Origin: an uncultured Candidatus Binatia bacterium
Lineage (GTDB): Bacteria; Desulfobacterota; Binatia; Bin18
NCBI GenBank assembly: GCA_965214605.1
Contig: OZ243961.1
Location: 1,280,001-1,344,000, forward strand
Length of the DNA: 64,000 bases
Direction: 5' to 3'
In this document: in pieces, positions 19,819 to 51,877 of the stretch
Layout of the letters: every line of letters begins with the position of its first letter
Position numbering within the stretch: the first letter of the stretch is position 1
Translations under genes and position numbers: made by a program
The notes under the pieces: model-generated
Told to the model about the DNA's origin: nothing
Database searches by the model: none
The model's input: the letters and a program-made list of their open reading frames with translations, nothing else

Positions 19819-21557
19819 CAGAGTTCTGCCAGTTCCTGTTCGAGTGTCTGCTGCTGAAAGAGTTCGGCGTAGAGGCCGCCTCGGGCAACTAAGTCTTTGT
19901 GCGAGCCCGTCTCAACAATACGTCCGTCGTCGAGCACAACAATTAGGTCGGCATGACGGACCGCAGAGATACGGTGCGAAATCATAATGACCGTCTTGTC
20001 CCGCGTTGAGTCACGCAACGCGCGCAGGATGGCCCCTTCAGTCCGGGTATCAACACTCGACAGCGCATCGTCGAGGACTAGGATCGGAGGATCAGCCATC
20101 AGGGCCCGGGCTAGGGTCGCGCGTTGTTTTTGGCCGCCGGACAACGTGATCCCGCGCTCCCCAACAATCGTATCATAGCCCTTGGGTAGGGCTTCAATCT
20201 CGTGACCGATGCTCGCCACCTCGGCCGCCCACTCGACCTGATCAAGGTCAACCGTTGGCAGGCCAAAGGCGATATTGTCTTTAATGCGAGTCGAAAACAG
20301 AAACGGATCTTGGGGAACAAAGCCGATACAGCGACGCAAAGCCGCCAGAGAAAACGTCCGAATATCTCTGCCGTCAATACGAATCGACCCGTTGCTGACG
20401 TCGAACAGACGCGGCAGCAGATGTACCAGGGTACTTTTTCCCGAACCCATCCGACCGACCAGAGCGACTGTGGACCCGGCCGATACGGTGAAGGTGATAT
20501 CGTGCAGCACTTGACGGCCGTTGTCAGGAGTGTGATAGGCAAAGTCAACATGATGAAAGTCAATGTCCCCTCTGAGCGCCTGACTCACTCTCTCATCAGA
20601 GCCGTCAACAATCGCGGGCTGCACGCAAAAGATACCATCGAGGCGCTGCAGAGCGGCCCTTCCCCGCTGCAAAATAGACACCAACCAGCCCAAGGCCATG
20701 GTCGGCCAGGCCAACAGGTGTAAATAGCCCATGAAAGCGACTAAATCGCCCAGGCTCAATCGGCCAGCGATGACTTGGGCCCCGCCGTACCACAGGATGA
20801 CCAACAGGCCGAGTCCGGACACGCTTTTCATCAGCGGCGGAAACAGTCCTCGTACCCGAGCCAGGGCGATACTGTCCGCCTTAAAGCGGGCGTTCAATTT
20901 GGCAAACTCCTCGTTCTGCCAGTCCTCACGGACATAGGCGCGCACAACGTGAATACCGCTGGCACCTTCCTGGACCCGGGTCGAGAGATCAGCCAAGCCT
21001 TCTTGGACACGCAGGGTCCGGACCATGATCTGACGGCTCATCACCCGAACAAAGATGATCATCAGTGGGTAAGGAGCCAGGGCCGCCAAGGTCAGGCCAG
21101 GGTCCATGGCAACCATAGCCGAGATGCCGTACACGTAGTACACGGGGGTGTTCAGCACATTCAGAATCCCCAGCCCCAGCAGCAGACGGACCGCATTCAC
21201 GTCGTTCACAAAACGTGACATCAGATCACCGGTAAAGTTGCGCTGGTAGTAACGTAAAGACAGCTTCTGTACGTGCGCGAACAGATCGTTACGCAGCTCA
21301 TACTCAATGTCGCGGCCGACATTAAAGATCAGGAAACGAGAAAAGGCGCGGACTACGCTCAGAATCAGAGCCACGCTGATAACAGCGGCAACCGACAGGC
21401 TAATGTCAAAAAAGGGGAGCCCCTGCTCAATGCCTTCAACCGTGCGTTTGAGCAAGAGCGGAATGGACATCGCCAAGCTAGCGGTGACCAATAGGCAGAG
21501 GATACCGCGCAGATACCGGTAGCGGTAACGAAAAATATAAGTCCAAAGACGATGCAT
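19818..21557 (-). CDS. ABC exporter, fused TMD-NBD subunit A (MdlA/YheI-like, degenerate Walker B)
   Basis: GRMGSGKST, LSGGQKQR, ILVLDDALSSVD; translationally coupled to subunit B. Confidence 0.92.
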   Translation of the reverse strand: MHRLWTYIFRYRYRYLRGILCLLVTASLAMSIPLLLKRTVEGIEQGLPFFDISLSVAAVISVALILSVVRAFSRFLIFNVGRDIEYELRNDLFAHVQKLSLRYYQRNFTGDLMSRFVNDVNAVRLLLGLGILNVLNTPVYYVYGISAMVAMDPGLTLAALAPYPLMIIFVRVMSRQIMVRTLRVQEGLADLSTRVQEGASGIHVVRAYVREDWQNEEFAKLNARFKADSIALARVRGLFPPLMKSVSGLGLLVILWYGGAQVIAGRLSLGDLVAFMGYLHLLAWPTMALGWLVSILQRGRAALQRLDGIFCVQPAIVDGSDERVSQALRGDIDFHHVDFAYHTPDNGRQVLHDITFTVSAGSTVALVGRMGSGKSTLVHLLPRLFDVSNGSIRIDGRDIRTFSLAALRRCIGFVPQDPFLFSTRIKDNIAFGLPTVDLDQVEWAAEVASIGHEIEALPKGYDTIVGERGITLSGGQKQRATLARALMADPPILVLDDALSSVDTRTEGAILRALRDSTRDKTVIMISHRISAVRHADLIVVLDDGRIVETGSHKDLVARGGLYAELFQQQTLEQELAEL

Positions 21558-21637: not shown

Positions 21638-22918
21638 TCAATCCTCTGTCCACTGCTCTAGGCGCATCAGCACGCCAACGAGTGCCCACAGCACGATACT
21701 CACCTCAGCATCGCCAAAGTTGTGCTGGGTCAGCCCGCCGATGAGAAAGCCGACGATACTGAGCAGAATGCCTAGGGCGCAGCTCTTGAGCGGCTCGGAC
21801 GACAGTCCGGTATAGAGCCGCCAGCCTTTGCCCAGGATGACCGCAATCAGGGCCGCAAAAGCGACGAGTCCCAGCCATCCACCATCCACCCACAGTTGCA
21901 GAAAGGTATTGTGGGCGTGGGCGTCGGAATTCCCGGCCCGCCCGGCTGGGGCGACCTCTGGATACTGGGCGTAGTAGGGGCCGCGGAACTGTTTATAGTT
22001 GCCGTAACCCCAGCCGAACAGCGGGCGGTCCCGGATCATGACGAGATTGGCCTGCCAGATGCGGCTGCGGGCAAGGTTTACCGGCGCGTTCAGGTCAAAA
22101 ATCTCACCGGCCCGCTCCCGTACCCCGTCTCCAGCACTGAGCAGCAACACCGCGCAGAGACCGAGCACCCCAAACGCCCCAGCAAGCGCCCGCCTGCCCC
22201 TCACCAGACCGGCCAGCACGAGCACGCTGGCATAGGCGATCCAGACGCCTCGGGTCAGGGAGAACAGCAGAGCCAGGACCATCAGTCCCCAGCCCACCCC
22301 CAGCGCGGCTCTTTTGCGCCAGTTGAGGGCTGGAGCCAAGAGAAAAGCCGTGACCAGAGACAGGGGAAACAGCAGATTGTGGGCGTAGGTGATGCTAGAC
22401 GAAAAAAGCCCTGCGGTCCGAAAGCCCTTTTGACTACCCAGCCAGAAGGTGGCCAGGTTTGACTCCTTGCCGACTAACTGGCGTGCCAGATCAAGGCCGG
22501 TGTAGTGCTGAACGATCGCGTAGGCGGCTAGCACGGCCGCGGTTGTTATGACCAATCTGATGAGCTGGACGGCGCATCGGCCGCTATCAATCAAGACATA
22601 GGCGACAAAAAAGGCTCCCACCAGCCACAGTTTTCGATAGACAGATAAAGAGTGGAGCGGGTCTGGGCCCAGCAGACTCGACAGCAGCAGGGCACCTAGA
22701 AACAGCACTAGGACCGGATCGAGAGGCGTGCGCGGGACGGTATGTGTCCGCCAGCAGTAGTAGGCTCCCACGCCCAGCATGATGCCGAGCAGGGTCTGCT
22801 GAATGGCGATTGCGGTGCACAGACTGATGAAAAAGAGCGCCAGGCCGATACGGACACTGCAATCAACCCATGTCCATCCCACGGTTTCTTCCAGCTCTTT
22901 GCCATTTGTGGGGTGCAT
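21638..22918 (-). CDS. O-antigen ligase / O-oligosaccharyltransferase family (Wzy_C) membrane protein
   Basis: Multiple TM segments, SLTRGVW, RSRIWQANLVMIRDRPLFGWGYGNY, HAHNTFLQ. Confidence 0.88.
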   Translation of the reverse strand: MHPTNGKELEETVGWTWVDCSVRIGLALFFISLCTAIAIQQTLLGIMLGVGAYYCWRTHTVPRTPLDPVLVLFLGALLLSSLLGPDPLHSLSVYRKLWLVGAFFVAYVLIDSGRCAVQLIRLVITTAAVLAAYAIVQHYTGLDLARQLVGKESNLATFWLGSQKGFRTAGLFSSSITYAHNLLFPLSLVTAFLLAPALNWRKRAALGVGWGLMVLALLFSLTRGVWIAYASVLVLAGLVRGRRALAGAFGVLGLCAVLLLSAGDGVRERAGEIFDLNAPVNLARSRIWQANLVMIRDRPLFGWGYGNYKQFRGPYYAQYPEVAPAGRAGNSDAHAHNTFLQLWVDGGWLGLVAFAALIAVILGKGWRLYTGLSSEPLKSCALGILLSIVGFLIGGLTQHNFGDAEVSIVLWALVGVLMRLEQWTED

Positions 22919-22921
22919 GCT

Positions 22922-24394
22922 TCAGGCGCTGCCCTGTCGGGTCAGCACGACCTTAATCGTATCGGCCAGAATACGGATATCGAGCCACACTGAATAGTTG
23001 TACATATAAGCCAGGTCGTATTTCAGCTTGTATTCCGGGGTAGTGTGGTATGCGCCGTTGATCTGGGCCAATCCGGTCAGACCGGGTTTGACCTGGAATC
23101 GCTCGGCATAGCCCGGTACACTGCGCAGGAAGTCCTTGACAAACTCGGGCCGCTCGGGCCGGGGGCCAACCAGGCTCATTGTGCCGTTTAGGACGTTCCA
23201 GAGCTGCGGGAGCTCATCGAGGCGACTATCCCTCAGAAAACGGCCGACCCGCGTCACGCGCGGGTCGGCCCGGCTGGTCAGCACCGGCCCGGTCTTGTCT
23301 TCAGCCCGATCGATCATGGTCCGTAATTTATACAGGATAAACTCCTTGCCGTCTTTGCCGACTCGCCGCTGGCGGTACACGATCGGTCCCGGAGAGGTAG
23401 TGACCAGAACGGCCGCGGCCAGGCCTAGGAGGGGGAGACTCAGCGCCAACAGGGTTGCCGCAAAAATACCGTCAAGCACGCCTTTCACGACAAAGGCCGG
23501 ATCGTCGTGTGGATTTTTCAGCGCGTCGACCAGGGGCACGTCATGGAGCCGGACCGAGGCCACCCGTCCGACCAGGATATCATACATCGAGGGGACAACC
23601 AGCACTCTGGGGCGTCTGCCAGCGTTATGCGGGGACGAATCGACCTGCTCACCGGGCTGCGTCGACAGGTCAAGCAGGCGTTCAACAAAGGCGTCTTTCC
23701 AGGTTGTGGAGGCCAGCAGGATAATGTCGTCAACGCGCACGTCATGGACAATCCGCTCCAACTCTGTGGCGTCTCCCAGCCAAGGAACCTCCAGATCTTC
23801 CCAGGCACTGTTCCAGGCTGGCTGGCCATTCAGACCGGAGAGGCTGACCAGGCCCACAATCTCAGGTCGGGGTCGCACCGCCGGCAGAACATTGAGAAAA
23901 GCTCGCGCCTCCTTTGGCGTACCAACCAGTAAAATCCGCAACGGGCGGAGCCGTCCTACCCGGCGCAGGATGCCAAGGCGCAGGGCGCCGATCATCGCCG
24001 AGTTGAAAAACCAGAAGAGCACCAGCACTGAACGGGGAAAAAAGAGATCGCCCCGAAAAAAATACCATGCCGTGGTCAGCAGCAATTGCAACCCACCGGC
24101 GGCTATGGCCCGGGGGAGGACCCGAGCTCGCAGCTGGAAGGTCTGCAGATCGTAGAGACCCAGAAAGTATAAAACAAATCCTTGAGTGACGAGAAGAAAG
24201 AGGAGAGGATGGTGCACTTCGATCAGGCGCTCAGCCGGCAGCAGCTCAGCGGTGAAGGGCAACGGCAGCACAAACCGGAAGGCAAACGCCATTCCGTACG
24301 CCCCGCCGACACACACCAGGTCAGCGGCCAACAGTCCCAACAGTCCCAACAGTCCCAACAGCGGCGTTGGGGACCGGAGCGTGCGGCTCCTCAC
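22922..24394 (-). CDS. Undecaprenyl-phosphate hexose-1-phosphate transferase (WcaJ/WbaP-type initiating enzyme)
   Basis: N-terminal TMs; YKLRTM, DPRVTRVGRFLRDSRLDELPQLWNVLNGTMSLVGPRPERP, KPGLTGLAQ. Likely GTG start at 24394 (GGAGG RBS; overlaps the upstream stop). Confidence 0.92.
   Translation of the reverse strand: MRSRTLRSPTPLLGLLGLLGLLAADLVCVGGAYGMAFAFRFVLPLPFTAELLPAERLIEVHHPLLFLLVTQGFVLYFLGLYDLQTFQLRARVLPRAIAAGGLQLLLTTAWYFFRGDLFFPRSVLVLFWFFNSAMIGALRLGILRRVGRLRPLRILLVGTPKEARAFLNVLPAVRPRPEIVGLVSLSGLNGQPAWNSAWEDLEVPWLGDATELERIVHDVRVDDIILLASTTWKDAFVERLLDLSTQPGEQVDSSPHNAGRRPRVLVVPSMYDILVGRVASVRLHDVPLVDALKNPHDDPAFVVKGVLDGIFAATLLALSLPLLGLAAAVLVTTSPGPIVYRQRRVGKDGKEFILYKLRTMIDRAEDKTGPVLTSRADPRVTRVGRFLRDSRLDELPQLWNVLNGTMSLVGPRPERPEFVKDFLRSVPGYAERFQVKPGLTGLAQINGAYHTTPEYKLKYDLAYMYNYSVWLDIRILADTIKVVLTRQGSA
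24328..24361. repeat. 9-bp tandem repeat (CCAACAGTC, 3 full copies plus 7 bp) encoding LLG-LLG-LLG
   Basis: ccaacagtc ccaacagtc ccaacagtc ccaacag read directly. Confidence 0.9.
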
Positions 24395-25278
24395 CCATGC
24401 CTCCGGACCCGGCTGCATGATTGGGCAAGCCGCGCGTAGAGCTTTTTGCGAGACAGCAGGTAGCCGTGCTTCCAGAAAAAATAGCCGACGCCCCACATGT
24501 GTTTCCACATCAGGCTAGACCAGAGCGAGCGGGTCTGGCGCCGCTCCTTGTGCACAACGACTGCCTCAGGGTTATACACCACCCGCCAGCCAAGCTGTTG
24601 CAGCCGCAGACACAGATCAACGTCCTCCGGGCCATAGAAAATATGTTCGTCAAGCATCCCTACGGTGCGGAGGGCACTGCAACGGATAACCTGACAGGCA
24701 CCGATCACGTAGTCCACATCACGGATCGTATTGTGATCCCAGTCGGCCATTTCAGACGCGCGGACGATTTTTTGCGCCGCCGCTGAGGGTAAACGCCGGG
24801 CCAGTTTATCGGACAAGGTCGGGAACAGCCGACAGGAGAGCTGCAGTCCACCGTCGGCAGTGGTCAGTTTAGGTCCACACAGCCCAACCTCAGGCTGTGT
24901 TTCCATATAGCGGATGAGGGAGTCCAAAGCCCCTGGCTGAACAATCGTGTCGTCGTCCAGAATAATGACATAGTGCCCGTGCGCCAAGCGGAGGCCTTGA
25001 TTGCGAGCCGGGGCAACACCGCGGTTTCTCGCGTTACGCACCAGCCGCGCGGTGGGTAGGGTCTTTTGGATAAGGGCACAGGTCTGATCCTGTGAGCCGT
25101 TATCGACCACAATGACCTCACCAGGAAAGGTGCGCAGCCCTTGGGTTAGAGAGGCCAAGCAGGTTGCAATATGCTGCTCGGAATTCCAGGTCAGGATCAC
25201 AACCGAAACGGTGACCTCTGTCGGCTGCGTGTGGACCGCCGCGGGCTTGGAATGAGTTTTAGGATTCAGGCAGCTCAT
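24391..25278 (-). CDS. GT2 glycosyltransferase (WbbL-like)
   Basis: VSVVILTWNS, VVDNGSQD, NRGVAPARNQG, ILDDD, YGPEDVDLCLR. Confidence 0.9.
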   Translation of the reverse strand: MSCLNPKTHSKPAAVHTQPTEVTVSVVILTWNSEQHIATCLASLTQGLRTFPGEVIVVDNGSQDQTCALIQKTLPTARLVRNARNRGVAPARNQGLRLAHGHYVIILDDDTIVQPGALDSLIRYMETQPEVGLCGPKLTTADGGLQLSCRLFPTLSDKLARRLPSAAAQKIVRASEMADWDHNTIRDVDYVIGACQVIRCSALRTVGMLDEHIFYGPEDVDLCLRLQQLGWRVVYNPEAVVVHKERRQTRSLWSSLMWKHMWGVGYFFWKHGYLLSRKKLYARLAQSCSRVRRHG

Positions 25279-25329: not shown

Positions 25330-26706
25330 CTATCGCAGTAAGACCCGCTCAACACTCTCCTTGACCGGCAGGAGCCGTTGTATCTTCTTGTCCAACACCG
25401 CCCGTGTTGTTGGAGACACCAGTCTTCTTAGCAGCGCCTGCAAGCGCAAATAGCGTACTGTCCGCGCCACTCGGAGCTGGCCGAGGCGCGCATCGGGCAC
25501 GGGACGGGGCTGATGTGTATGCAATTCCCTCGCCTCCCGGAGCAAGGTCACCATACGCTCACCCATTTGATCAAGGTGAAAATGCTGCCTGATCCGTTGG
25601 ATTGCGGCTTGGCCGAGGGCCGCCCGGCGTTGGGGGTCACCGAGGAGACGAGCTAGGATATTCGCGTATTGACGCGCTCCAGTCTCTGTATCTGTTCCAT
25701 GACGGGCGGGGTTCGGCGACACCAGCACCCCGCACTCCGGAGTGAGGAGTTCCCGCTGGCCACCCACATCCGCCCCAACAACCGGCAGTCCACACGCCAT
25801 GGCCTCAAAGATCGACACGGCAATCCCCTCCCACCGAGAGGGCAAAAAAAAGATATCGGCCGCCACCATCAGGTCCCGAATCCGTGTATTTGAAACCGCC
25901 CCCAGCAAACGCACTTGGTCCACTAAGTCGGAGGAGCTGACACGGCGCTGCAGCCGAGTAAATTCAGGCCCATCGCCCGCTACCACTGCCACAAAGCGCT
26001 CGGTGCCGGCCTTCAGGTGCCGGAGGGTCTCCAGAAACAGGTGCGGCTGTTTCTGGGCGCAGATACGTCCTGCATACAAGATGATCGGGAGCCGGAGGGC
26101 GTCTCCTTGACTCCGTTCAGCACCGGCCAGCAGCTCACGACGAACCCGCTTCCGCCGCTCAAGGTCGGGCTGCCATTCGACCGGATCAATATTGGTGTAA
26201 CATACCCGGATGCGCCCAGGGTCGGCTCCACGGTCAACCATCCATCTCCGCAGATAGTCAGAAGAGACAAGTTGCAAGTCGAGCAAGTCTTGGTGTTCAA
26301 TCGACATCCGGGGGTATCCACCCCGTTTCCAAGCCTGCTCTTCCATGTGGCAAAAACCGACAAACGTCACGTCCGGACACTCGGCACGCAGGTACGGCAG
26401 GAGCAGATAGCCAAGTTCGCTATTGGCAATCAGCACAACATCGACTCGCCGCGTCTGAATCAACTCCCGGAGAAAAGCCGGATAGTCCGCCATCCGTCGC
26501 TGGCGGTCGAACAGAAAAATGTCTTGGCTATAGCGGGCAAACCGGGCAAACCAAGGGTGGGCGGAGGGCAAAGTCGTTGCTATTAAAACCTGCCATCCCC
26601 ACTGGCGTAACTGCCGGAGCAGGTCCAGATTAAACTTGTCCGCCCCACCCATTTCCAACCAAGGCACGAGCAATAAGAGGCGGGGGGGAACAGTGTCATC
26701 TGTCAT
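25330..26706 (-). CDS. GT4 glycosyltransferase
   Basis: GGADKFNLD, YAGRICAQKQP, FLPSRWEGIAVSIFEAMACGLPVVGADVGGQREL. Confidence 0.92.
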   Translation of the reverse strand: MTDDTVPPRLLLLVPWLEMGGADKFNLDLLRQLRQWGWQVLIATTLPSAHPWFARFARYSQDIFLFDRQRRMADYPAFLRELIQTRRVDVVLIANSELGYLLLPYLRAECPDVTFVGFCHMEEQAWKRGGYPRMSIEHQDLLDLQLVSSDYLRRWMVDRGADPGRIRVCYTNIDPVEWQPDLERRKRVRRELLAGAERSQGDALRLPIILYAGRICAQKQPHLFLETLRHLKAGTERFVAVVAGDGPEFTRLQRRVSSSDLVDQVRLLGAVSNTRIRDLMVAADIFFLPSRWEGIAVSIFEAMACGLPVVGADVGGQRELLTPECGVLVSPNPARHGTDTETGARQYANILARLLGDPQRRAALGQAAIQRIRQHFHLDQMGERMVTLLREARELHTHQPRPVPDARLGQLRVARTVRYLRLQALLRRLVSPTTRAVLDKKIQRLLPVKESVERVLLR

Positions 26707-26920
26707 TGGCTGTAGGTACCGAGCAGGGTGAAAGGTATTCCATCCATGTTATGCCACACCCGGCTACAGCGTGATAGCCCCGCATCACCCCTCTTCTCCC
26801 TCGGCTCCCGACCATCTTTCCTTTCCTGTTGGCTTTTGATACATGCTTGGGGCTGATGAAAGATTTTGTAAAGATCAGTGACGGAGACAGCTCCAACTGA
26901 GTCGCGATCGGAAGAGGGCT

Positions 26921-27160
26921 ATGCAGAGAAGAGGGCTATTCCTTTTTATTTTGCTATGGACGAGTGTCGTCTGTCCACGGGCTGCCCACGCCTATTTAGA
27001 TCCAGGCAGCGGCAGCATGCTGTTGCAGCTCTTGCTCGGGGGTGTGGCTGGTCTGGCCGTTTTGCTCAAGCTGTACTGGCAGCGTTTCCTCCTCTTGTTC
27101 GGTATGAACCAAGCGGAAGACTCGGCAAGCGAAGACGCGCAATCTGCTCAGCAGGAGTAG
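26921..27160 (+). CDS. Small membrane protein with signal peptide and YLDPGSGS motif
   Basis: RBS GGAAGAGGG. Signal peptide ends AAHA, then YLDPGSGSMLLQ, a TM helix and an acidic tail. Preferred over the overlapping N-terminal extension of ORF 26878..28677. Confidence 0.8.
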   Translation: MQRRGLFLFILLWTSVVCPRAAHAYLDPGSGSMLLQLLLGGVAGLAVLLKLYWQRFLLLFGMNQAEDSASEDAQSAQQE

Positions 27161-27195
27161 TCCTACCGGCTTACGGTTCGGCTCAGACGTGTCCC

Positions 27196-28677
27196 ATGTC
27201 TCCTCCTGATGCGCTCAGGTCTGAACGCGGCTCGTTTCGCGACCGCACGAGCCGCGTTTTTTATCACGCGGACACTGTATTGCGAGCGCTGACCGCCCCA
27301 GCCTTGGTCGACTGGAATCAGCTCACCTCAACCACCTTCTTTCAGCGCCTGCACAGCGCTGGAAAGATTGTCCGGACCGAACAGGTTGATCCGCTTTATT
27401 TCTGCGGTACCACCCCTGAATTTGCCTCATCAGAGCGCCCATCTCCCACGGGCACAAGCCCCTGGGTCGCCACCCTCAAACACCAAAAGATCCCATTTAT
27501 TTCCTATCCGTACGAATGGTCGTTTGGTATGCTCAAAGATGCCGCTCTATTACAGCTGGAGTTGCTTCAGGTCGCATTAGCCGAGGGCATGATTCTCAAA
27601 GACGCCTCGTCTTTCAATGTCCAATGGGTCGGCAGCCGACCGATTTTTATCGACATCCCCTCCTTTACCCGTTTGACGCCCGGAACCCCGTGGGTTGGCT
27701 ATCGGCAGTTCTGTCAATTATTTCTGTTTCCGCTCCTTCTCCAAGCGTACAAAGACATCCCCTTTCAACCCTGGCTGCGGGGGAGTCTTGAGGGCGTTTC
27801 TCCCCAGGACTGCCGTCAGTTCATGTCGGTCCGTGACCTGCTGCGGCCGGGCGTGTTCGGCCACGTGTATTTGCAAGCCAAGGCCCAGGTCCGGTATGCC
27901 GACTCTGGCCAGCAACCTCTTCAGGGCAAACCCGGCCGTCAACAGAACCTCAAACATGCTCTGCGCAAGGCGGGCTTTCATACGGCTTTGATTCAAGCCA
28001 ATGTCAGTCGTTTGATGAAACTTATCCAGCGTCTGAGCTGGAACCGGGCGCGCTCAACCTGGGTAGAGTATACCCATCACCTTCCATACACGGAGGGCGA
28101 ACAGGCCCAAAAAGCAGATTTTGTCCGCCGTGTGATCCACTCGCGGTCTTGGTCGATGGTCTGGGATCTTGGCTGCAACACGGGCACCTTCTCACGTCTT
28201 GCGGCTCAAAACGCCACCACGGTCGTCGCCATGGACGCCGATGCCCTTGTCATAGAACGATTCTACCAAGCCTTGAAGACAGACGGGGAAACCTCGATTC
28301 TCCCCTTGGTCAGCAATGTGGCCGATCCGGCGCCAAACCTCGGCTGGCGGGGAGCAGAGCGCCAAGCCCTCGACCAGCGCACCCGACCAGACCTTATTCT
28401 GAGTCTGGCCCTCATTCATCATCTGGTGATCGGGGCCAATATTCCTCTGTACGAATTCCTCGTCTGGCTAGCGGGCTTCAAGGCTGCGGTAGTCATTGAG
28501 TTCATCACTCGCGAGGATCCCATGGTCCAGACCTTGCTCCGGCACAAAGACGACCACTATGCGGACTATGAGACAGCATATTTTGAGCGCTGCTTGTCCG
28601 CCGCTTTTACCATCAGGGAGCGTCATCTCTTAGCCTCGGGTACACGCATCTTATACTATGGTGAGCCGAAAACCTGA
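27196..28677 (+). CDS. NoeA-like protein: N-terminal kinase-like region fused to a class I SAM methyltransferase
   Basis: GSFRD, ISYPYEWSFGMLKDAA, LKDASSFNVQW, IFIDIPSF; SAM motif VWDLGCNTG, LALIHHL. Start placed at ATG 27196. Confidence 0.8.
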   Translation: MSPPDALRSERGSFRDRTSRVFYHADTVLRALTAPALVDWNQLTSTTFFQRLHSAGKIVRTEQVDPLYFCGTTPEFASSERPSPTGTSPWVATLKHQKIPFISYPYEWSFGMLKDAALLQLELLQVALAEGMILKDASSFNVQWVGSRPIFIDIPSFTRLTPGTPWVGYRQFCQLFLFPLLLQAYKDIPFQPWLRGSLEGVSPQDCRQFMSVRDLLRPGVFGHVYLQAKAQVRYADSGQQPLQGKPGRQQNLKHALRKAGFHTALIQANVSRLMKLIQRLSWNRARSTWVEYTHHLPYTEGEQAQKADFVRRVIHSRSWSMVWDLGCNTGTFSRLAAQNATTVVAMDADALVIERFYQALKTDGETSILPLVSNVADPAPNLGWRGAERQALDQRTRPDLILSLALIHHLVIGANIPLYEFLVWLAGFKAAVVIEFITREDPMVQTLLRHKDDHYADYETAYFERCLSAAFTIRERHLLASGTRILYYGEPKT

Positions 28678-31216
28678 ACGCCGTCCAGCGCGTCAGCAAA
28701 AAGTCGTGGAGAAGGGAGAGACGGGCTGGACGGCCAGCCTGCATGTCTTTGTCCTCGTGGGCTTTGCCGTTGCTCAGCCCCTCTTTGACCTGCTGGCACG
28801 CCAGGCGGAGTTTTTTATCTTCCGGCAGGCCACCTCGGGAGACATTACCGCTCTCGTCGTGATGCTTTGCGTGCTCCTCCCGCTCGGCTTGATAGGCGTG
28901 GAGGGGATTATCGGTCTATGCAGCCCCCGGCTGAGACGTTGGGCCCATGGAGCAATTATTGCCGGAGGAGTGGCGGCAACGGTTTTACCTGCTCTCCATC
29001 CCATCAGTGCTTTGCCGGGCTCTCTACTCGTTGCCGGAGCGTTCCTGCTCGGAGGGATGACGGCGCTGGGGTATGCCTTTTTTCCGCCCGTCCGGCTGTT
29101 CTTCAGCCTGTTGTCCCCGGCTGTGCTGATTTTTCCTAGCCTCTTTGTCTTTACCTCGCCGGTCTTTCGAATTGTCTTTCCGACTGACCCTTCCATTCCG
29201 GTTGAGCGCCTACACATTGCAAACCCACCGCCTATTGTTTTTATTATTCTGGATGAACTCCCCCTGACCTTGCTGCTTAACGAACACCACCAGATTGATG
29301 CGGCCCGCTATCCCCATTTTGCAGCTCTGGCACAGCACGCAACTTGGTTTCGCAATACCACCACCGTCAGTGCCTCAACTTCTCAGGCTGTTCCAGCCAT
29401 TCTGACCGGCCAGTACCCCGTCCCCCAGCAACTACCACATGCGACCGACCACCCACATAATTTGTTTTCACTGCTAGCTGGGCTGTATGACCTCAACACG
29501 TTTGGCGCGCTGACCCAGCTCTGTCCAGCTTCCCTGTGCACGCAGCACCGGAGCGCGGTGTGGCAGCGTCTCCCCTCCCTGCTGTCCGACCTAGCCGTTG
29601 TGTATCTCCATCTGCTCCTGCCACAGGACCTCCGAGCCAGCCTTCCGACTATTTCTCAAAACTGGGGACATTTTATCAATGCTCCAGAGCCGCACGACCG
29701 TAGAGCTGCCCAGTTAAAACTTCTTGACAAAATGATGCGCCACACCCTTCTCAGCGACCGCCGCCAGCAGGGACTGGACTTCATCCAAGCCATTCGGGCA
29801 GCAGACCAGCCGCATCTGTATTTTTTTCATTTCCTTCTTCCGCACGCTCCTTATAACTACCTCCCGTCCGGAAAGGTTTATACACAAGAAGGAGGAGTTC
29901 CTGGCCTGCCTGCCAAAGGTCAGCGGTATGTTGACGACACCCAGGGAGTGTTGCAGGTCTACCAACGCCATTTACTCCAGGTCGGCTTTGTTGACACATG
30001 GCTGGGAGCACTGTTGAGCCATCTCCAAGAAACAGGTCTGTATGACCAGACTCTGCTGGTCATTACCGCCGACCACGGAGTCAGTTTTCGGCCGGGCGAT
30101 TTGCGTCGCCTCCCTACCCAGACAACGTTTCAAGACATCATGCCCGTCCCCCTCTTCATCAAAGCCCCCTTTCAACGAGACGGCAACGTCAACGATCAAC
30201 CGCTGGAAACCATTGATATTCTTCCAACACTTGCAGATATCCTTAGGGTGAAGCTGCCTTGGGAGATTGATGGCTGCTCGGCATTTGATCCGTGCTCCGA
30301 ACGGATTCGCCGGATTTACTCATCATCGGGCAACCCCTTGACCTTTCCGGGCTTAGCTCAGGCTCTAGAACGAGCCGTCCAACGCCAACACCGCCTATTT
30401 GGCTCCGGGCTCCCCTTCCCAACCGCACCTAGTAGCCCCTTGTTAGGCAAACACCTCAAAGAGTTCGGCAGTATCGGAGCAACCAATGTGCGGATTGAAA
30501 TTGATCGGCCCGATCGTTTCACCACCGTGGATCTCCGGTCAGACTTTGTTCCCGCTTATATCAGCGGCTTAATCTCTCCCCAATCTCGTAGTGACCAGCC
30601 CGTCTCACTTGCCGTAGTGGTCAATGGTACGATTCAAGCGGTGACTCAGCCCTGGGGCGTTCCAATCCGAGGCCGGCATGGGTTCTGGTCGGCCACTGTC
30701 CCGGAGACCGCTTTTCAAACCGGCCGGAATACGGTTGAGGTCTTTGTCGTTTCCAATGTCGCAGGACAAATTACCCTGGCTCGTGCACCCGAAACACACT
30801 ACCGCCTGGACTCGGCCGACCAGACCGAAGCGTTGGTGTCGGCCGATGGCTCTTCCATACCTATCGTTCCCCAAGCCCTCCGAGGCTATATTGAGACTCC
30901 CCAGGTTTCTGAGCACACTGTCTTGCTCAAGGGTTGGGCGGTTGATGAAAAACATGCCCAATCGGCCGAGCAAATTCTTATTTTTCTGAACGGAACATTT
31001 TACCACGCGGGTCCAACAGCTGTCTCTCGTCCAGAGATTGCAGAATGGCTTGAACAGCCCGCTTTTGCCACCTCAGGCTTTCGCTATACCTTTCCAGCCG
31101 AGCCTTTTGTTGGCAGTGGGACGCCTGAAGTGCGGGTCTTTGCCGTCTCCGGCAGTATCGCTTCGGAACTGCGCTACATTGAGGGGTATCCGTGGAAGCC
31201 GTCGGTCCAATACTGA
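28658..31216 (+). CDS. Membrane-anchored sulfatase-fold (alkaline phosphatase superfamily, LtaS/EptA-like) protein with C-terminal Ig-like domains
   Basis: About 5 N-terminal TMs; IILDELP, SASTSQAVPAILTG, PHAPY, ITADHG, DILPTLAD; C-terminal GWAVD...RPEI...SGF domain. Confidence 0.8.
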   Translation: MVSRKPERRPARQQKVVEKGETGWTASLHVFVLVGFAVAQPLFDLLARQAEFFIFRQATSGDITALVVMLCVLLPLGLIGVEGIIGLCSPRLRRWAHGAIIAGGVAATVLPALHPISALPGSLLVAGAFLLGGMTALGYAFFPPVRLFFSLLSPAVLIFPSLFVFTSPVFRIVFPTDPSIPVERLHIANPPPIVFIILDELPLTLLLNEHHQIDAARYPHFAALAQHATWFRNTTTVSASTSQAVPAILTGQYPVPQQLPHATDHPHNLFSLLAGLYDLNTFGALTQLCPASLCTQHRSAVWQRLPSLLSDLAVVYLHLLLPQDLRASLPTISQNWGHFINAPEPHDRRAAQLKLLDKMMRHTLLSDRRQQGLDFIQAIRAADQPHLYFFHFLLPHAPYNYLPSGKVYTQEGGVPGLPAKGQRYVDDTQGVLQVYQRHLLQVGFVDTWLGALLSHLQETGLYDQTLLVITADHGVSFRPGDLRRLPTQTTFQDIMPVPLFIKAPFQRDGNVNDQPLETIDILPTLADILRVKLPWEIDGCSAFDPCSERIRRIYSSSGNPLTFPGLAQALERAVQRQHRLFGSGLPFPTAPSSPLLGKHLKEFGSIGATNVRIEIDRPDRFTTVDLRSDFVPAYISGLISPQSRSDQPVSLAVVVNGTIQAVTQPWGVPIRGRHGFWSATVPETAFQTGRNTVEVFVVSNVAGQITLARAPETHYRLDSADQTEALVSADGSSIPIVPQALRGYIETPQVSEHTVLLKGWAVDEKHAQSAEQILIFLNGTFYHAGPTAVSRPEIAEWLEQPAFATSGFRYTFPAEPFVGSGTPEVRVFAVSGSIASELRYIEGYPWKPSVQY

Positions 31217-31244: not shown

Positions 31245-33554
31245 TCAGTTAGGCTGGCTCCGTCCCACCAAGAAACGCTTCAGCGTATCTTTTAGCGCGA
31301 TGCACCACCGCATATTGTAGTTTACGGCAAGCCGATAAGACGGCATCAAGAGACGCCGGAGGACAAAATAGGTGCGGGTCTGCCACGGCAGCCCAGCACT
31401 CTCAACAGGCGAAAGGCGAGGCGTGGTGGATTTTGCTTGTCCACGCTCCTGCCACAACTCCTCAGCCACGCTCGCCAAGCGGGTATACTCGACCGCTTGG
31501 CTGGCGCATATTCGGGCCAGACCGAGATGGGGAATGGGACGCGGCTGTGTTGTATGCCGGTGTTGGGCTTCTCGAAAGAGCTGCTCCAGCCGCTTAGCCA
31601 ACTCCTCTAACCGGAATGCGGTCTGTATCCGGCGGCGACCAGCTTGGCCCATGCTGTAGCGACGTTCAGGCTGTGCGATGAGCTCAGCCAGGGCGGCAGC
31701 GTAGGTCTCAGCTTCGGCCTCCGGTGTCGTGCGGGGAATCAAGATGCCGCACTCTGGCGTGACAAGTTCCCGCTGGCCACCCACGTCAGCCCCAACAATG
31801 GGCAGCCCACAGGCCATCGCTTCATAGAGAGACAAAGCAATCCCCTCCCACTGTGAAGGCAGAAAAAAAATGTCTGCCTCCGCCATCAGCCGACAAACGG
31901 AGTCGTTTGGGACGGCGCCCAGCAGCCGAACATGCCTGCCAAGCCCACGGCGTTTGATAAAGCCGCCCAACCAGTCGGCGTCAGGCCCATCGCCAGCTAC
32001 CACGGCCGCCCAGTTTGTCGTGGTCCGGTCAAGACAGACTAAGCTCTGGGCAAAGACGCGGGGCTGCTTTTGCTCGCAAATACGCGCCACGTACAGCAGG
32101 AGAGGCGTATTGTCGGCAATGCCTAGTTCGTGCCGGACAGACGTCCCGTTCTCCGTCGCTGTCGGCCGCCATTTTTCCGCATCAACGTTGGTATAACACA
32201 CCCGGATACGTTCAGAATCGGCTCCGCGCTGTTCCATCCAATGGCGAAGATGCTGCGACGAAACAATGTTAAGATCAAGCACGTCTTGATATTCAACGGC
32301 AAAACGCGGATAGCCGCCACTCTTCCAGTCTTCTTCCTCCATATGGCAGTAATCGACAAAGGCGACCCCCGGACACCGGGCTCGGAGATAGGGCAAGAGA
32401 AGATAGGCAAGCTCACTATTCGAGACCATCACCACAGAGATCTGGCGAGAGTGGATCAGGTAGCAAAGGAAACGCGGATAGTCCGTGAGGCGCAAAAAAT
32501 GGTGTAAGATAAAAACATCGGGGGTGAAATGGGCAAACTGTGGCCACCAAGATGACTCTCCGGTTAAGGTGGTGGCGATGGACACTTCCCAGCCCTGACC
32601 GGTCAACAGTTCCAAGACATCGAGATTAAATTTATCAGCGCCACCAACCGTAAGCCACGGCAGCAGCATCAGGAGGCGCGGTTTGTCCTTCTGCAGACGA
32701 TTGTCCCACAGGTATTCATCCGCTATTGGCGTATACGCCCGATGCCCTTCCGGCTGGACGTGTGGAAATTTCCCAGCCCACAGCTGGGGATAGCGCCGTT
32801 GGAGTTGGCCCTTGACCTTCTGTGGCTTGTTCCAGTGAGCCCAGCGATCCTGATGTGACTCGCGTCGCCGATACCAATCCAGATACTCTGGCAGCGTCCC
32901 TCCCCAATAGCCCCGGCTGGCACATCGCAGCCAAAAATCCCAATCCTCAAATCCTCTCCGAAAATTTTCATCATACCCGCCAACCGCGCCATGGACCGCT
33001 GTCTGGACCACACTGGTAACCGCGACACTATTTTCTTCCAAAAAGGCTTCCCCATTATGAAAACCTTGCTGCCACAAATACGTCTGCGCCTCAAAGCCGA
33101 CAGTATACCCCTTCACAAACGCATACTCAGGATACGACTCTAGAAACCACAGACACTTCTCAATGGCGGTTGGTTCCAACAGATCGTCGCTGTCGAGTTG
33201 GACCACATATGGAGTCCGGGCCGCCTGAAAACCGCTATTGCGGGCGGCACTCAGGCCACGATTGTGGTCATGGTCGATCACACGAATCCGTGTATCCCGA
33301 TTGCGATATTCGTCGAGTAAGGCCAAGGCGTCAGCTTGGGTCGAACCATCATTAATAATGAGCCATTCCCACTGCTGGAATGACTGACGCATGATGGAGC
33401 GAGCAGTCTCATGAAAAATCGCCCCAGTGTTGTAAAAGGGTGTCACAATGGTCGCCGCCGGAGGGACGGTCGGGTCAGCCGGCCCATAGTCATAGACAGG
33501 ACGCTGGTCCGACGCCGGCGTATTTGCATAATCAGGATTTTTCGGATCAATCAT
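31245..33554 (-). CDS. Bifunctional GT2 + GT4 glycosyltransferase
   Basis: IINDGS, NRGLSAARNSG, LDSDD, FEDWDFWLR (GT2); GGADKFNLD, FLPSQWEGIALSLYEAMACGLP (GT4). Start ATG 33554 is coupled to the upstream stop. Confidence 0.92.
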   Translation of the reverse strand: MIDPKNPDYANTPASDQRPVYDYGPADPTVPPAATIVTPFYNTGAIFHETARSIMRQSFQQWEWLIINDGSTQADALALLDEYRNRDTRIRVIDHDHNRGLSAARNSGFQAARTPYVVQLDSDDLLEPTAIEKCLWFLESYPEYAFVKGYTVGFEAQTYLWQQGFHNGEAFLEENSVAVTSVVQTAVHGAVGGYDENFRRGFEDWDFWLRCASRGYWGGTLPEYLDWYRRRESHQDRWAHWNKPQKVKGQLQRRYPQLWAGKFPHVQPEGHRAYTPIADEYLWDNRLQKDKPRLLMLLPWLTVGGADKFNLDVLELLTGQGWEVSIATTLTGESSWWPQFAHFTPDVFILHHFLRLTDYPRFLCYLIHSRQISVVMVSNSELAYLLLPYLRARCPGVAFVDYCHMEEEDWKSGGYPRFAVEYQDVLDLNIVSSQHLRHWMEQRGADSERIRVCYTNVDAEKWRPTATENGTSVRHELGIADNTPLLLYVARICEQKQPRVFAQSLVCLDRTTTNWAAVVAGDGPDADWLGGFIKRRGLGRHVRLLGAVPNDSVCRLMAEADIFFLPSQWEGIALSLYEAMACGLPIVGADVGGQRELVTPECGILIPRTTPEAEAETYAAALAELIAQPERRYSMGQAGRRRIQTAFRLEELAKRLEQLFREAQHRHTTQPRPIPHLGLARICASQAVEYTRLASVAEELWQERGQAKSTTPRLSPVESAGLPWQTRTYFVLRRLLMPSYRLAVNYNMRWCIALKDTLKRFLVGRSQPN

Positions 33555-36027
33555 TGGGCTCAGTCTCTGAAGCTGGAAATGGCTGAGCGGGATTGACAAT
33601 TTTTAGAAACCGACCGAGGCGTCCCCAAAAACTCTCCTGCCAATGCTCGGTCTGTGCCTGCCAATACTCGGCCTGCGCCTGCCAATGCTCGGCCTGCGCC
33701 TGCCAGCTCTCCCATTGTCCTTCTAGCCACGCCTTCCCCGTTTCCAGCTCACCAATCCAGACACGTTGCTGCTCCACCACCCGCTCCTGCTCCTCGGCTA
33801 GTGCCTGCCAGCGCCGCCACTGATCTTCCAGCCACCCCCGTCCCCTATCGAGCTGAGCCGCCCACTCCCGTTGTTCCAATATCGCTTCTACGGCCTCGGC
33901 CAAGAGTTGAGCCTGGCGCGTCTCACTTCTGCGTTGGGCATAGTACGAGACAGCCGCGCGCATGGCTCGACCACACTCTTCCACCCCCCGTTCGTATTGA
34001 TAGTCGTGCGAAGCATTGTCCGCGTGCCAGCGGTAGCGCACCAAGGTATCGTGGATAAAAGCGACCCGTCCCTCAATACACAGCTTCATCCACATCTCAT
34101 AGTCGCAGGCATAGCCGAGCGCTTCATTAAAGCCGCCAACCATATCGAGTTGTTCCCGCCGGACAACCACGGTCGACGCGCAGATACACTCCCCGTGCAG
34201 CAACAGTTTGCGAAAATATGCCTCGCCCTCTTCCACAAAATCCACCTCCGCTTTTTCTATCCAGTCACTCAAACGGCTAGGCGCTCTGGCTTCTACAATG
34301 GGTTCTGCCCTCGAATGCACTAGGCTCAGATCGGGCTCACTCTCAAACAGGGCCATCTTGCGCGCCAGGTTGTCGGCCAACATTACATCGTCCTGATGAA
34401 ACACGCACACATACTCGCCCCGCGCCAGCTCGACAGCCGTATTCCAATTCGCCGGAATACCTCGCCGCTGGGAATTCTGATAGACGCGAAGACGGGGGTC
34501 GTCAAACTCCTGGAGAAGCTTCAGCGTTCGATCGCTTGAGCCGTCATCGACTGCCACAACTTCAAAATCGGTATAGCTCTGCTGCAGCACACTCCGCACC
34601 GCTTCAGCTACATATGCCTCACCATTGTAGGTCGGCAGACAGACGCTCAAGCGTGGCCGGGCCAAGTCAGGCGATGTATCTCTGAGTTGGCGAGGTGCAG
34701 CCGGACTGGAGAGGGTCGGAGCTTGACGTGATGACCCCGACCCGTCCGGCATCGCGGTAGGAACGCCTGAAGGCGGGACGGAGCGTGGGCCAGACCGTTC
34801 CAGCACGGCTTCATAGGTCTGCTCGACATCCCGGGCGTAGGTGTCGGCATCGCGCCAGACAAACCGGGCTGACTTGAGTCCAGCCAGCAGGGCCGGCTCG
34901 TCCAGAAGACGCCGCAGACACCGCCGCAGCGCGTCGGCATTCCCCGGCTCAAACAGCAATCCGTTATGGCCATCGTGGATGAGTTCGGGCAGGGCCCCCC
35001 TGCGGGCGGCAATCACCGGCAGACCGACCTGGAGAGCCTCACGGGCGACCAGGGAAAACGTTTCTTCACAGATTGAGGGGATGATGCACACATTATGCCG
35101 GGCCAGAATGGCCGGGAGTTCAGAACGATCGTAGACGCCTCCCCAATGGACAGACAGGTCGGCTGCGGCCTGGCGGAGCTGGTCTATGTACGCCTGCTTG
35201 GACGCCAGTCCAACCCCATAGAACGAGACCTGCGCCTGCTCGGCGGGCAGACCTTTGAGCGCGTGCAGCAACACCTGCGCACCTTTGTGCGGCAGCAGAG
35301 CTCCAATACACAGCACCCGTAGGGTCGGCTCCGCCTCCCCCTCATCTGATCGGTCTGGAACAGAACGGGACAGGGGGGGCAGCCCAGGGGCAATTATTTG
35401 GAGCCGATCGTGTAAAAAAGGGAAGTCATTCACAATCCGCCGGGCCAGAAAGGCGGACGGAACAATAACCTGACGGGGTCCCTGTAGAACTTGAGTCATA
35501 CACGCAAAACGATGACGGACGTCTTCGGCTGGGGCAACATCGTGGAGACACCCAACGCACCGCTCGCCGCGTTGCGGTCCGGGACAGAGTTGGTCGTCCC
35601 GGTCAATCAGGTGCACCAAGTGACAGGCAAAAAAGAAATCGTGCAGGCTCAATACCGTGGGGTAGCCAAGGGTGGACACACAGGGAACGAGGCTGGCTGA
35701 CAGATGGGCAATATGCTGAAAATGGACGATATCGGCCCGACAGCGGTGTAAAAGCTGGCGAAAGATGTCATGGAAAAAGGGATTGTCGTAGCGTAAACGA
35801 AAGGACATTGTCCGGGTATAGTTATTCACAATGCGGATAATCCGCAGCCCGTGCTCATCCTGCTCTTCTTGGAGGCTGCATTCCGCACGGTCGGGCGCAA
35901 AGGTCCGCGCCACAATCGTCACCTGGTGTCCACGTGCCTGGAGAGCGCGGGACAGCTCCAAGGTCAGGATCTCAGTCCCGGCCCTCTCCTGTGGGGGAAG
36001 TCCGTGCACAACTTGGACAATCCGCAT
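33547..36027 (-). CDS. Bifunctional GT4 + GT2 glycosyltransferase with Trp-rich coiled-coil C-terminus
   Basis: AGTEILT, PSICEETFSLVAREALQVGLP (GT4); Pro/Ser linker; LPTYNG, VDDGSSD, HQDD (GT2); heptad-repeat tail. Confidence 0.9.
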   Translation of the reverse strand: MRIVQVVHGLPPQERAGTEILTLELSRALQARGHQVTIVARTFAPDRAECSLQEEQDEHGLRIIRIVNNYTRTMSFRLRYDNPFFHDIFRQLLHRCRADIVHFQHIAHLSASLVPCVSTLGYPTVLSLHDFFFACHLVHLIDRDDQLCPGPQRGERCVGCLHDVAPAEDVRHRFACMTQVLQGPRQVIVPSAFLARRIVNDFPFLHDRLQIIAPGLPPLSRSVPDRSDEGEAEPTLRVLCIGALLPHKGAQVLLHALKGLPAEQAQVSFYGVGLASKQAYIDQLRQAAADLSVHWGGVYDRSELPAILARHNVCIIPSICEETFSLVAREALQVGLPVIAARRGALPELIHDGHNGLLFEPGNADALRRCLRRLLDEPALLAGLKSARFVWRDADTYARDVEQTYEAVLERSGPRSVPPSGVPTAMPDGSGSSRQAPTLSSPAAPRQLRDTSPDLARPRLSVCLPTYNGEAYVAEAVRSVLQQSYTDFEVVAVDDGSSDRTLKLLQEFDDPRLRVYQNSQRRGIPANWNTAVELARGEYVCVFHQDDVMLADNLARKMALFESEPDLSLVHSRAEPIVEARAPSRLSDWIEKAEVDFVEEGEAYFRKLLLHGECICASTVVVRREQLDMVGGFNEALGYACDYEMWMKLCIEGRVAFIHDTLVRYRWHADNASHDYQYERGVEECGRAMRAAVSYYAQRRSETRQAQLLAEAVEAILEQREWAAQLDRGRGWLEDQWRRWQALAEEQERVVEQQRVWIGELETGKAWLEGQWESWQAQAEHWQAQAEYWQAQTEHWQESFWGRLGRFLKIVNPAQPFPASETEPND
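33636..33706. repeat. 21-bp tandem repeat (3 copies plus a partial) encoding WQAQAEH-type heptads
   Basis: cctgccaatgctcggtctgtg / cctgccaatactcggcctgcg / cctgccaatgctcggcctgcg / cctgccag. Confidence 0.9.
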
Positions 36028-42680: not shown

Positions 42681-42848
42681 CTGACAGATTCCTGTGATGA
42701 GGACAGTGAAAGGGGGTGGTTTTCAGGGTAGGACATGGGGCACTGGACTTTTAGGCGGGAATGCACTACAAAGACGCAACCTTACACTTTGCTCTCAAAG
42801 CCTGTTCCAAGCTTTGAGGCAGGCTGTCTTGAAGGGAGGACAGACGGA

Positions 42849-51662: not shown

Positions 51663-51780
51663 TCCTGGTCTCAATGGCGGAGGGGCCACACCCGTTCCCA
51701 TACCGAACACGGCCGTTAAGCCCTCCAGCGCCGATGGTACTGCCTCCTGTGGAGGTGGGAGAGTAGGACGAGGCCAGGGG
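51663..51780 (+). rRNA. rrf: 5S ribosomal RNA (stand-alone)
   Basis: CCTGG...CACACCCGTTCCCATACCGAACACGGCCGTTAAG...GCCGATGGTACTG...GGGAGAGTAGGACG...CCAGG; helix I ends are complementary. Confidence 0.95.

Positions 51781-51805: not shown

Positions 51806-51877
<72 letters not shown>

Follow-up and report, generated by a model that had tools for sequence, protein, structure and literature searches.

The window analysed here is a stretch of 64,000 nucleotides from an uncultured Candidatus Binatia bacterium (contig OZ243961.1). Its positions 26921-31216 hold a cassette of three genes, encoding a membrane micro-protein of 79 amino acids (gene 1), a kinase-like/methyltransferase protein of 493 amino acids (gene 2) and a polytopic membrane protein of the alkaline-phosphatase (AP) superfamily of 852 amino acids (gene 3). 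We find that this cassette is a copy of a very widespread bacterial gene set that probably modifies the cell envelope. The three genes are inherited as a unit across phyla, and sequence comparison indicates that the cassette is the same module as a small open reading frame (ORF), noeA and noeB of Sinorhizobium meliloti.

Conservation of the unit was assessed in a scan of one genome per species, which returned 586 gene 2 relatives; the 80 loci kept span Binatia, Nitrospirota, Acidobacteriota, Actinomycetota, Planctomycetota, Bacteroidota, and Alpha- and Gammaproteobacteria. By profile, 76 of the 80 loci have a peptide ORF immediately 5′ of the gene 2 homologue and on the same strand (a plain motif regular expression misses about a quarter of the peptides, and the profile was used for counts instead). 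The loci without an upstream peptide are L016, in which gene 2 is 5′-truncated, L032, L034 and L045. Directly downstream, 41 of 80 loci carry a close gene 3 homologue (phmmer E < 1e-40), and at three more (L050, L058 and L066) a frameshifted gene 2 masks the adjacency. Twenty loci show no AP-fold neighbour by gene 3 phmmer; Pfam identifies adjoining membrane Sulfatase-family genes in 12 of them. An iterated AP-fold profile finds a match at 69 of 80 loci, with short fragments only in L014 and L023; this count is an upper estimate because the iterated profile may catch unrelated soluble sulfatases, as in L039 and L073. Seven of the 11 loci without a match end, at a contig end, within 600 nucleotides of gene 2. 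Conserved co-occurrence, which an earlier reading of the window from its sequence alone (the sequence-only reading) had set as a test of its proposal, is borne out by these counts, with the peptide at 76 and an AP-fold gene at 69 of 80 loci.

The AP-fold gene varies in position and in subfamily. When ORFs with at least 250 aligned residues were considered, the nearest one lay downstream on the same strand at 47 of 80 loci and overlapped at one more; elsewhere it was upstream and divergent (8), downstream and convergent (5), upstream on the same strand (4), further away (2) or absent (13). The partner also swaps subfamily, as seen in the BLASTP E value of 0.032 between gene 3 and NoeB and in the Pfam Sulfatase neighbours that gene 3 phmmer misses. 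Because the partner is drawn from different subfamilies, the link is to fold and function and not to one lineage. Six actinomycetotal loci (L010, L054, L067, L071, L075 and L076) have two gene 3 homologues beside a single pair of peptide and gene 2. At L079 (9457-12486), the downstream AP-fold protein is 1010 amino acids long and has a weak match to GDPD, the glycerophosphodiester phosphodiesterase family (E 9.8e-6), which hints at a glycerophosphate-type substrate.

Other neighbours of the cassette vary, with 440 proteins falling into 325 clusters. When 219 neighbours, drawn from 45 of the 80 loci, were classified by Pfam in two sets of 107 and 112, Sulfatase was the sole strongly recurrent family (13 of 107 and 19 of 112). 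Phosphodiest, an AP-superfamily model that also matches gene 3, accounted for 6 of 107 and 10 of 112 neighbours, and no glycosyltransferase family exceeded four in either set. The sequence-only reading had cast the cassette as a system for glycan decoration; as a general role this is not supported, given that homologues of the window's glycan genes occur within 8 kb at only 10 of 80 loci and that Sulfatase alone recurs strongly.

The comparison with S. meliloti connects the module to a gene set with a genetic history. Gene 2 is 32% identical to NoeA over 97% of the query (tblastn against features annotated noeA, E 4e-53), and tblastn matches to gene 2 occur in 65 plasmid records, 57 of them from Sinorhizobium. 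The gene order on pSymA is nodL, an ORF of 71 amino acids annotated as 'hypothetical protein', noeA and noeB. The small ORF (L081, 3748-3963) reads ...VPAHA-YLDPGTGSMLVQ..., which places it in the micro-protein family with the motif AYLDPGTGS, and it overlaps the noeA start by 23 nucleotides; it is the fourth, unnamed gene of the classical nod-box n5 operon. As in the window, the gene 2 homologue, noeA, is immediately preceded by the small ORF and immediately followed by an AP-fold gene, noeB. The link to noeA-noeB drawn in the sequence-only reading is thereby upheld, and extends to the small ORF. The two copies differ in their AP-fold proteins and in their setting. NoeB has 553 amino acids and gene 3 has 852, with two extra beta domains; the two belong to different AP subfamilies and align in BLASTP over the HFLxPHxP segment alone. 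The window copy lies within a polysaccharide cluster, whereas the S. meliloti copy lies behind a nod box. According to part of the text of an earlier study, noeA is a host-specific nodulation gene (PMC4053727).

A family with the same composition has been reported from Legionella anisa, in a paper that we cite from part of its text and supplement (PMC9758233, Sci Rep 2022). There, Lani_1194 represents a new family of kinase-like proteins in which Arg replaces the catalytic Lys and Asp, Asn and Asp residues are conserved, and 94% of about two thousand homologues are fused to a methyltransferase (PMC9758233). Across 816 neighbourhoods, the small hypothetical protein Lani_1193 accompanies it in 65% and Lani_1195, an AP-fold, EptA/YejM-like NoeB homologue, in 38%; the authors view the set as a conserved functional unit whose role is unknown (PMC9758233). 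The description of the cassette as an undescribed system must therefore be withdrawn, as the kinase-methyltransferase family and its two conserved neighbours are already on record in the consulted part of that paper. In a literature search for Lani_1194 by name, this paper was the only one returned. Lani_1193 probably belongs to the same peptide family as gene 1, judging from its size, its position and its predicted signal peptide. In the consulted part of the supplement, SignalP6 predicts Sec cleavage, at 19-20, 21-22 or 27-28, in most of the Lani_1193 homologues from Legionella (PMC9758233).

Within the window, the three genes are co-directional on the plus strand and are flanked on both sides by minus-strand glycosyltransferase genes (25330-26706 and 31245-33599, from ORF and Pfam analysis). 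Gene 1 occupies 26921-27160, gene 2 27196-28677 and gene 3 28658-31216. The gene 2 frame is open from 26878, and its start was placed at the ATG at 27196, in agreement with the N termini of 27 aligned homologues. The gene 1 stop and the gene 2 start are 36 nucleotides apart and genes 2 and 3 overlap by 20 nucleotides, both of which are signs of an operon. Strands, gap and overlap confirm the layout given by the sequence-only reading, three tightly packed and co-oriented genes opposite to the surrounding glycan genes. A purine-rich, Shine-Dalgarno-like stretch, GGAAGAGGG, can be read directly on the plus strand at 26910-26918, just 5′ of the gene 1 ATG. No sigma-70-like site was found on the plus strand of the 214-nucleotide divergent intergenic region 5′ of gene 1, promoter and terminator scans gave no more matches than shuffled sequence, and Rfam had no match within or near the cassette. 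Among 1291 six-frame segments of the window, the peptide profile matches one (E 1e-24; next best 0.14), and the AP-fold profile likewise matches a single segment.

Gene 1 combines four short elements. Residues 1-24 (26921-26992) form a signal-peptide-like N terminus with MQRRG, a hydrophobic core and AHA; residues 25-32 (26993-27016) carry the conserved motif YLDPGSGS, predicted to lie at the outer membrane face; residues 33-53 (27017-27079) form, by hydropathy and conservation, a transmembrane helix with Gln36 and the small-residue run G40-G41-x-A43; and residues 54-79 (27080-27157) form a tail, basic (KLYWQR...) and then acidic, whose charge pattern marks it as cytoplasmic. Hydropathy alone delimits the single hydrophobic helix of the peptide at residues 30-53. 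In 55 aligned peptides Y25, D27 and G41 are invariant, and G31, S32, Q36, G40 and A43 are conserved in at least 90%. N termini and charges were tabulated for 76 peptides, that of the window and those of 75 loci. A long N terminus is present in 39 of the 76, with a hydrophobic core in 33 of these 39; in the other 37, mostly from Actinomycetota, ten residues or fewer precede the Tyr. Ala stands directly before the motif Tyr in 65 of 76. In 68 of 76, the stretch of 15 residues that follows the helix is net positive, which speaks for an N-out, C-in topology. The sequences thus fit a single-pass, N-out, C-in micro-protein with its Tyr/Asp/Gly motif at the predicted outer face, which in diderms may be cleaved just before the Tyr.

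The family is large. No Pfam or NCBIfam model matches the gene 1 peptide, its ESM Atlas neighbours are all clusters named 'hypothetical protein', and a literature search with the motif strings returned no match. Against 1.84 billion representatives, the peptide profile finds 12,651 clusters at E ≤ 1e-3 and 3,890 at E ≤ 1e-10, and the top 150 matches are all 61-135 amino acids long. A search for fusions, in which 8000 candidates were scored, gave four matches among longer proteins. Three of them (P0272, P0273 and P0274; 398-449 amino acids) are TagF-like proteins (PF04464) consisting of a signal-like segment, AYLDPGSGS, one transmembrane helix and then the TagF-like domain; the helix Gln and the Gly-Gly of the micro-protein are not kept in them. 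The fourth, P0271, is a long reading frame with the peptide at its end. These TagF-like CDP-glycerol glycerophosphotransferases share the N-terminal module with the micro-protein but carry it fused to an enzyme, and because three of them do so, the module can, to judge from the sequences, anchor enzymes that build phospho-polymers in the membrane. The TagF-like domain presumably acts at the cytoplasmic face, as in TagF itself.

In the cassette, the Tyr/Asp motif, Gln36 and Gly-Gly-x-Ala of the peptide lie beyond the reach of gene 2, so that their partner should sit in the membrane or outside it; the conservation patterns point to the gene 3 product as the only conserved candidate. Complex prediction with residues 1-560 of gene 3 and residues 22-79 of the peptide gave scores of 0.31, 0.40 and 0.07 (median 0.31, against a mark of 0.32), with controls at 0.00-0.01, a result that speaks neither for nor against binding.

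Gene 2 belongs, by homology and by its AlphaFold 2 (AF2) model, to the NoeA family of kinase-like and class I S-adenosylmethionine (SAM) methyltransferase proteins, and has no transmembrane segment. At least 6318 homologues score E ≤ 1e-5 among 8000 candidates, and identity is about 60% with proteins whose source names indicate distant groups. Residues ~1-290 (27196-28065) form the protein-kinase-like domain, with GSFRD, R30, LKD136xxxxN141 and FID153IPSF, and residues ~291-493 (28066-28674) the methyltransferase domain, with DLGCNTG as motif I. Across 28 aligned sequences G12-S-F-R-D16, R30, K135-D136, N141, D153 (within F-I-D-I-P-S-F) and D324-x-G-C-N-x-G330 are invariant; the kinase-like active site thus comprises Arg30 in the place of the beta-3 Lys, together with Asp136, Asn141 and Asp153. 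The first 290 residues match no Pfam family even at E ≤ 10; for the C-terminal part, Pfam and NCBIfam give weak class I methyltransferase matches only, those in Pfam being to Methyltransf_23, 12, 25 and 11 (E 4e-4 to 2e-2). The AF2 model (predicted local distance difference test score (pLDDT) 73.0; predicted template modelling score (pTM) 0.80) retrieves both methyltransferases and protein kinases from the Protein Data Bank (PDB) with Foldseek, the kinases being PknG, PAK4, ROCK2, CaMKII, PKA, Tyk2 and GAK (E ~2e-4 to 7e-4). When the 28-sequence profile was run against the PDB, the four best matches were WbdD chains (E 0.0011-0.0018), aligned from motif I to the LALIHH segment, WbdD residues 57-181. 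The kinase-like and SAM motifs noticed in the sequence-only reading are substantiated by the invariant residues, by Foldseek matches to both folds and by the WbdD profile match, and gene 2 encodes a cytoplasmic enzyme that joins a protein-kinase-like domain to a class I SAM methyltransferase domain.

WbdD of E. coli O9a makes a methyl-phosphate cap. It resembles gene 2 in that a single chain contains both a kinase fold and a class I methyltransferase, but the domain order is reversed, with the methyltransferase at ~57-181 in WbdD and at ~300-490 in gene 2. The C-terminal coiled coil of WbdD is also missing from gene 2, whose AF2 model ends with the methyltransferase strands 471-491 and has no long C-terminal helix. 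WbdD is not known to have a peptide or AP-fold partner. Among longer proteins, gene 2 matched two of 8000 candidates scored, P0276 and P0277. P0276 (1014 amino acids) has an unassigned N-terminal region with hydrophobic stretches followed by a full gene 2; P0277 was rejected as an artefact, as it reads like a wrong-frame, low-complexity translation across gene 2 and a sulfatase gene. A further homologue, P0111 (778 amino acids), is gene 2 with repeat insertions.

Gene 3 was identified as a polytopic AP-superfamily protein with a Thr nucleophile from a Pfam Sulfatase match (PF00884, residues 193-529, E 3e-24) and an AF2 model with pLDDT 85.4 and pTM 0.80. A basic N terminus and a membrane domain of about five helices, seen in both the hydropathy profile and the model, make up residues 1-175 (28658-29182), the modelled helices spanning 23-48, 60-88, 90-113, 121-141 and 143-166; P41 in the first of them is invariant. 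The AP/sulfatase-fold catalytic domain follows at residues ~190-545 (29225-30292), with D199, E200, T241, H391, H396, D472 and H473. Residues ~600-848 (30455-31201) are modelled as two all-beta, sandwich-like domains, with strands at 606-709 and 715-837, for which Pfam gave no family at E ≤ 10 beyond a chance-level Ig-like match. In sequence, the solved structures closest to gene 3 are those of phosphonate monoester hydrolases (4upk, E 2.9e-22). Thr241 aligns with the formylglycine Cys of 4upk, and gene 3 lacks the Cys/Ser-x-Pro-x-Arg formylglycine motif, reading S-A-S-T-S-Q-A-V-P against T-N-P-C-G-P-S-R-A in 4upk. In 52 gene 3 homologues from related loci, D199 is kept in 50, E200 in 46, T241 in 49, H391 in 50, and D472 and H473 in 51 each; homologue lengths fall into two groups, of ~700 and ~830-850 amino acids. 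The assignment as a Thr-type AP-superfamily membrane protein, made earlier from the sequence, is in keeping with the Pfam match, the alignment of T241 and the modelled helices. The AP-fold domain, with its full set of metal ligands, is predicted to face outward.

In these respects gene 3 resembles phosphotransferases of the EptA/LtaS/OpgB/BcsG type, which likewise have about five N-terminal helices, an outward AP-fold domain, a Thr nucleophile and metal ligands. It departs from the EptA/LtaS type in its extra C-terminal beta domains, in LtaS and YejM scores far below the cut-offs and in Foldseek results that favour soluble hydrolases and sulfatases. Sequence and model together describe gene 3 as a protein of EptA/LtaS-kind layout, with a Thr nucleophile, that stands outside those families. 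The three-part layout of the cassette has a counterpart in BcsE-BcsF-BcsG of E. coli cellulose modification, which comprises a cytoplasmic protein, a small single-pass peptide and an AP-fold membrane transferase; BcsE, however, is a c-di-GMP-binding protein, unlike the kinase-methyltransferase gene 2. DltX, the small membrane carrier of teichoic acid D-alanylation, is comparable in layout to gene 1, being a tiny single-pass protein with an invariant outer-face Tyr that is encoded first in its operon. In DltX, however, the motif lies at the C terminus and bears an acyl group; the motif of the micro-protein differs in position.

These features led us to a mechanism in which the cassette would form a self-contained, membrane-spanning module for envelope modification. 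Gene 3 would act as EptA, LtaS and OpgB do: its Thr would receive a phospho-headgroup from a lipid donor in the membrane, and the enzyme would hand this group to an acceptor outside the membrane. Gene 2, at the inner face, would phosphorylate and then methylate in the manner of WbdD, either making or regenerating the donor or marking the target before export, and the micro-protein would be a membrane-integral subunit that couples the inner and outer sides. In the window the likely acceptor would be the polysaccharide of the surrounding ABC-transporter-type cluster; because glycan genes lie near the cassette at only 10 of 80 loci, this polysaccharide is not the general acceptor, which in most other genomes would be some common envelope component. 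That the module adds a phospho-substituent to an envelope component is, on sequence comparison, an explanation to which we give somewhat less than an even chance. Methyl phosphate would be the single most likely substituent, and is unproven; the glycan methyl-phosphate mechanism of the sequence-only reading is a plausible conjecture.

Several observations weigh against this mechanism. Every chemical step in it is inferred, for all members of the family. The kinase matches of gene 2 in Foldseek reach an E value of only ~1e-4, on a model of pLDDT 73, and the match to WbdD is marginal (E ~1e-3) as well as reversed in domain order. Three loci have gene 2 and gene 3 and no peptide, four loci with room for one have peptide and gene 2 and no AP-fold neighbour, and homologues of the window's glycan genes lie within 8 kb of the cassette at only 10 of 80 loci, the closest relatives L001-L003 included. 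For the gene 3 core, the best Foldseek matches are soluble phosphonate monoester hydrolases and formylglycine S1 sulfatases (E 1.5e-13), EptA and LtaS are absent among the 50 best matches, and the NCBIfam models for LtaS and YejM score 21.8 bits (cut-off 970) and 15.7 bits (cut-off 825). Given these matches and sub-cut-off scores, the fold of gene 3 is as compatible with a hydrolase as with a transferase. In addition, an ion-pair Glu could not be identified in the kinase-like domain of the family, according to the consulted part of the Legionella study (PMC9758233).

The loci and structures also bear on other explanations. That the three genes are mere neighbours without a shared function is barely credible, because gene order and strand are repeated in Binatia, Nitrospirota, Acidobacteriota, Actinomycetota, Planctomycetota, Bacteroidota and Proteobacteria and the other neighbours vary. 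A second alternative, specific to the window and close to the sequence-only reading, treats gene 2 as a chain terminator of the WbdD type that caps a lipid-linked polysaccharide with methyl phosphate on the cytoplasmic side; the Wzt_C domain would read the cap for export, and gene 3 would then edit or move the phospho-group once it is in the periplasm. In E. coli O9a, terminal caps are bound by Wzt_C domains, and the window cluster contains both Wzm and a Wzt of the Wzt_C type. WbdD is moreover the best PDB match of the gene 2 methyltransferase domain, and the closest relatives, L001-L003, also lie beside glycan genes. Yet a Wzt homologue is found near the cassette at 1 of 80 loci, a Wzm homologue at 0 of 80 and any homologue of the window's glycan genes at 10 of 80; gene 2 lacks the WbdD coiled coil, the cluster's own 260-residue methyltransferase beside Wzm could be the terminator, and the outward-facing peptide motif would be left without a role. 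We consider this explanation unlikely.

The micro-protein might instead be the substrate or a covalent carrier, loaded by the AP-fold enzyme with a phospho-substituent on the motif Tyr or Ser, either as the end product or as an intermediate that an envelope polymer would then receive, much as DltX carries D-alanine. AP-fold transferases do modify proteins, such as pilin and the flagellar rod. The motif has invariant Y25 and D27 and almost invariant G31 and S32, and its predicted place is the outer face, the same side as the catalytic domain of gene 3; the peptide is also the most tightly linked partner (76 of 80 loci). A carrier is harder to reconcile with the fusion of the module to three TagF-like cytoplasmic glycerophosphotransferases, which fits an anchor or docking module better, and with the three loci that keep gene 2 and gene 3 without a peptide; it also leaves the cytoplasmic kinase-methyltransferase without a role, and we regard it as improbable. 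A similarly small chance is given to lipid housekeeping, in which the AP-fold enzyme would hydrolyse or remodel an outer-leaflet phospholipid or lipid-linked phosphate and gene 2 would recycle or re-methylate the product at the inner leaflet, with no polymer modified. The unrelated housekeeping neighbours at most loci would suit it, as they imply a substrate that occurs in nearly all bacteria, and so would the nearest structures of gene 3, which are promiscuous phosphodiester/phosphonate hydrolases. Most gene 3 homologues, however, have one or two additional beta-sandwich domains on the outer side of the membrane, which suggests binding of a larger ligand, and the S. meliloti genes give a host-specific symbiosis phenotype and not a growth defect in the consulted part of the nodulation study (PMC4053727).

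Transfer of a phospho-substituent to an envelope component by the three products together can also be stated in a stronger form. The micro-protein, with its outer-face Tyr/Asp and its Gln/Gly-Gly helix, would then be an obligate third subunit that physically couples gene 2 and gene 3 in a new trans-membrane relay, placing a methylated phospho-group such as methyl phosphate on envelope molecules in thousands of bacterial species, and this would be the long-missing function of noeA and noeB. We think it unlikely that this stronger form is correct.

As far as our searches show, four points are new: the micro-protein family itself, with its definition, topology and size; the identity of the unnamed gene in the classical nodL-noeA-noeB operon as a member of it; the near-universal AP-fold partner, which changes subfamily between loci; and the TagF-like fusions of the micro-protein module. 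The cassette occurs in both diderm and monoderm phyla, and in a model symbiont it has a genetic phenotype. S. meliloti is a ready test system. Identifying what the cassette makes would account for the noeA and noeB host-range phenotype and might add a new envelope modification. For the window alone the result is ordinary, one more copy of the cassette inside a polysaccharide cluster.

That cluster includes an initiating sugar transferase, five glycosyltransferase genes, Wzm (ABC2_membrane; 38723-39574, minus strand) and Wzt with a Wzt_C domain (40441-41634, minus strand; Pfam E 4.8e-10). A separate methyltransferase of 260 amino acids (Methyltransf_11; 37910-38692, minus strand) adjoins Wzm. 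The combination of methyltransferase, Wzm and a Wzt_C-type Wzt suggests a capped polysaccharide exported by an ABC transporter, and from its sequence and position the 260-residue enzyme is a candidate chain terminator independent of the cassette. An 826-residue protein with GT4 and GT2 domains (33547-36027, minus strand) has at its end a repeat rich in Trp, Gln, Ala and Glu, WQAQAEHWQAQAEYWQAQTEHWQ, which resembles a coiled coil and could be a chain-length ruler like those of ABC-transporter-dependent O-antigen systems. The Wzm/Wzt cluster also holds a Wzy_C (O-antigen ligase-like) protein and the Bac_transf initiating sugar transferase (21638-24508, minus strand), and just upstream of these genes lie two ABC_membrane/ABC_tran exporter genes (17980-21557).

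Elsewhere in the window, four plus-strand ORFs of 150-475 amino acids (42735-44162, 12694-13173, 13937-14392 and 14966-15538) match no Pfam family at E ≤ 1e-5. A 5S rRNA gene (87.8 bits) followed by tRNA-Gly(CCC) lies at 51664-51878, without an adjoining 23S rRNA gene; upstream of the 5S rRNA gene, its neighbour on the opposite strand is a type II secretion gene.

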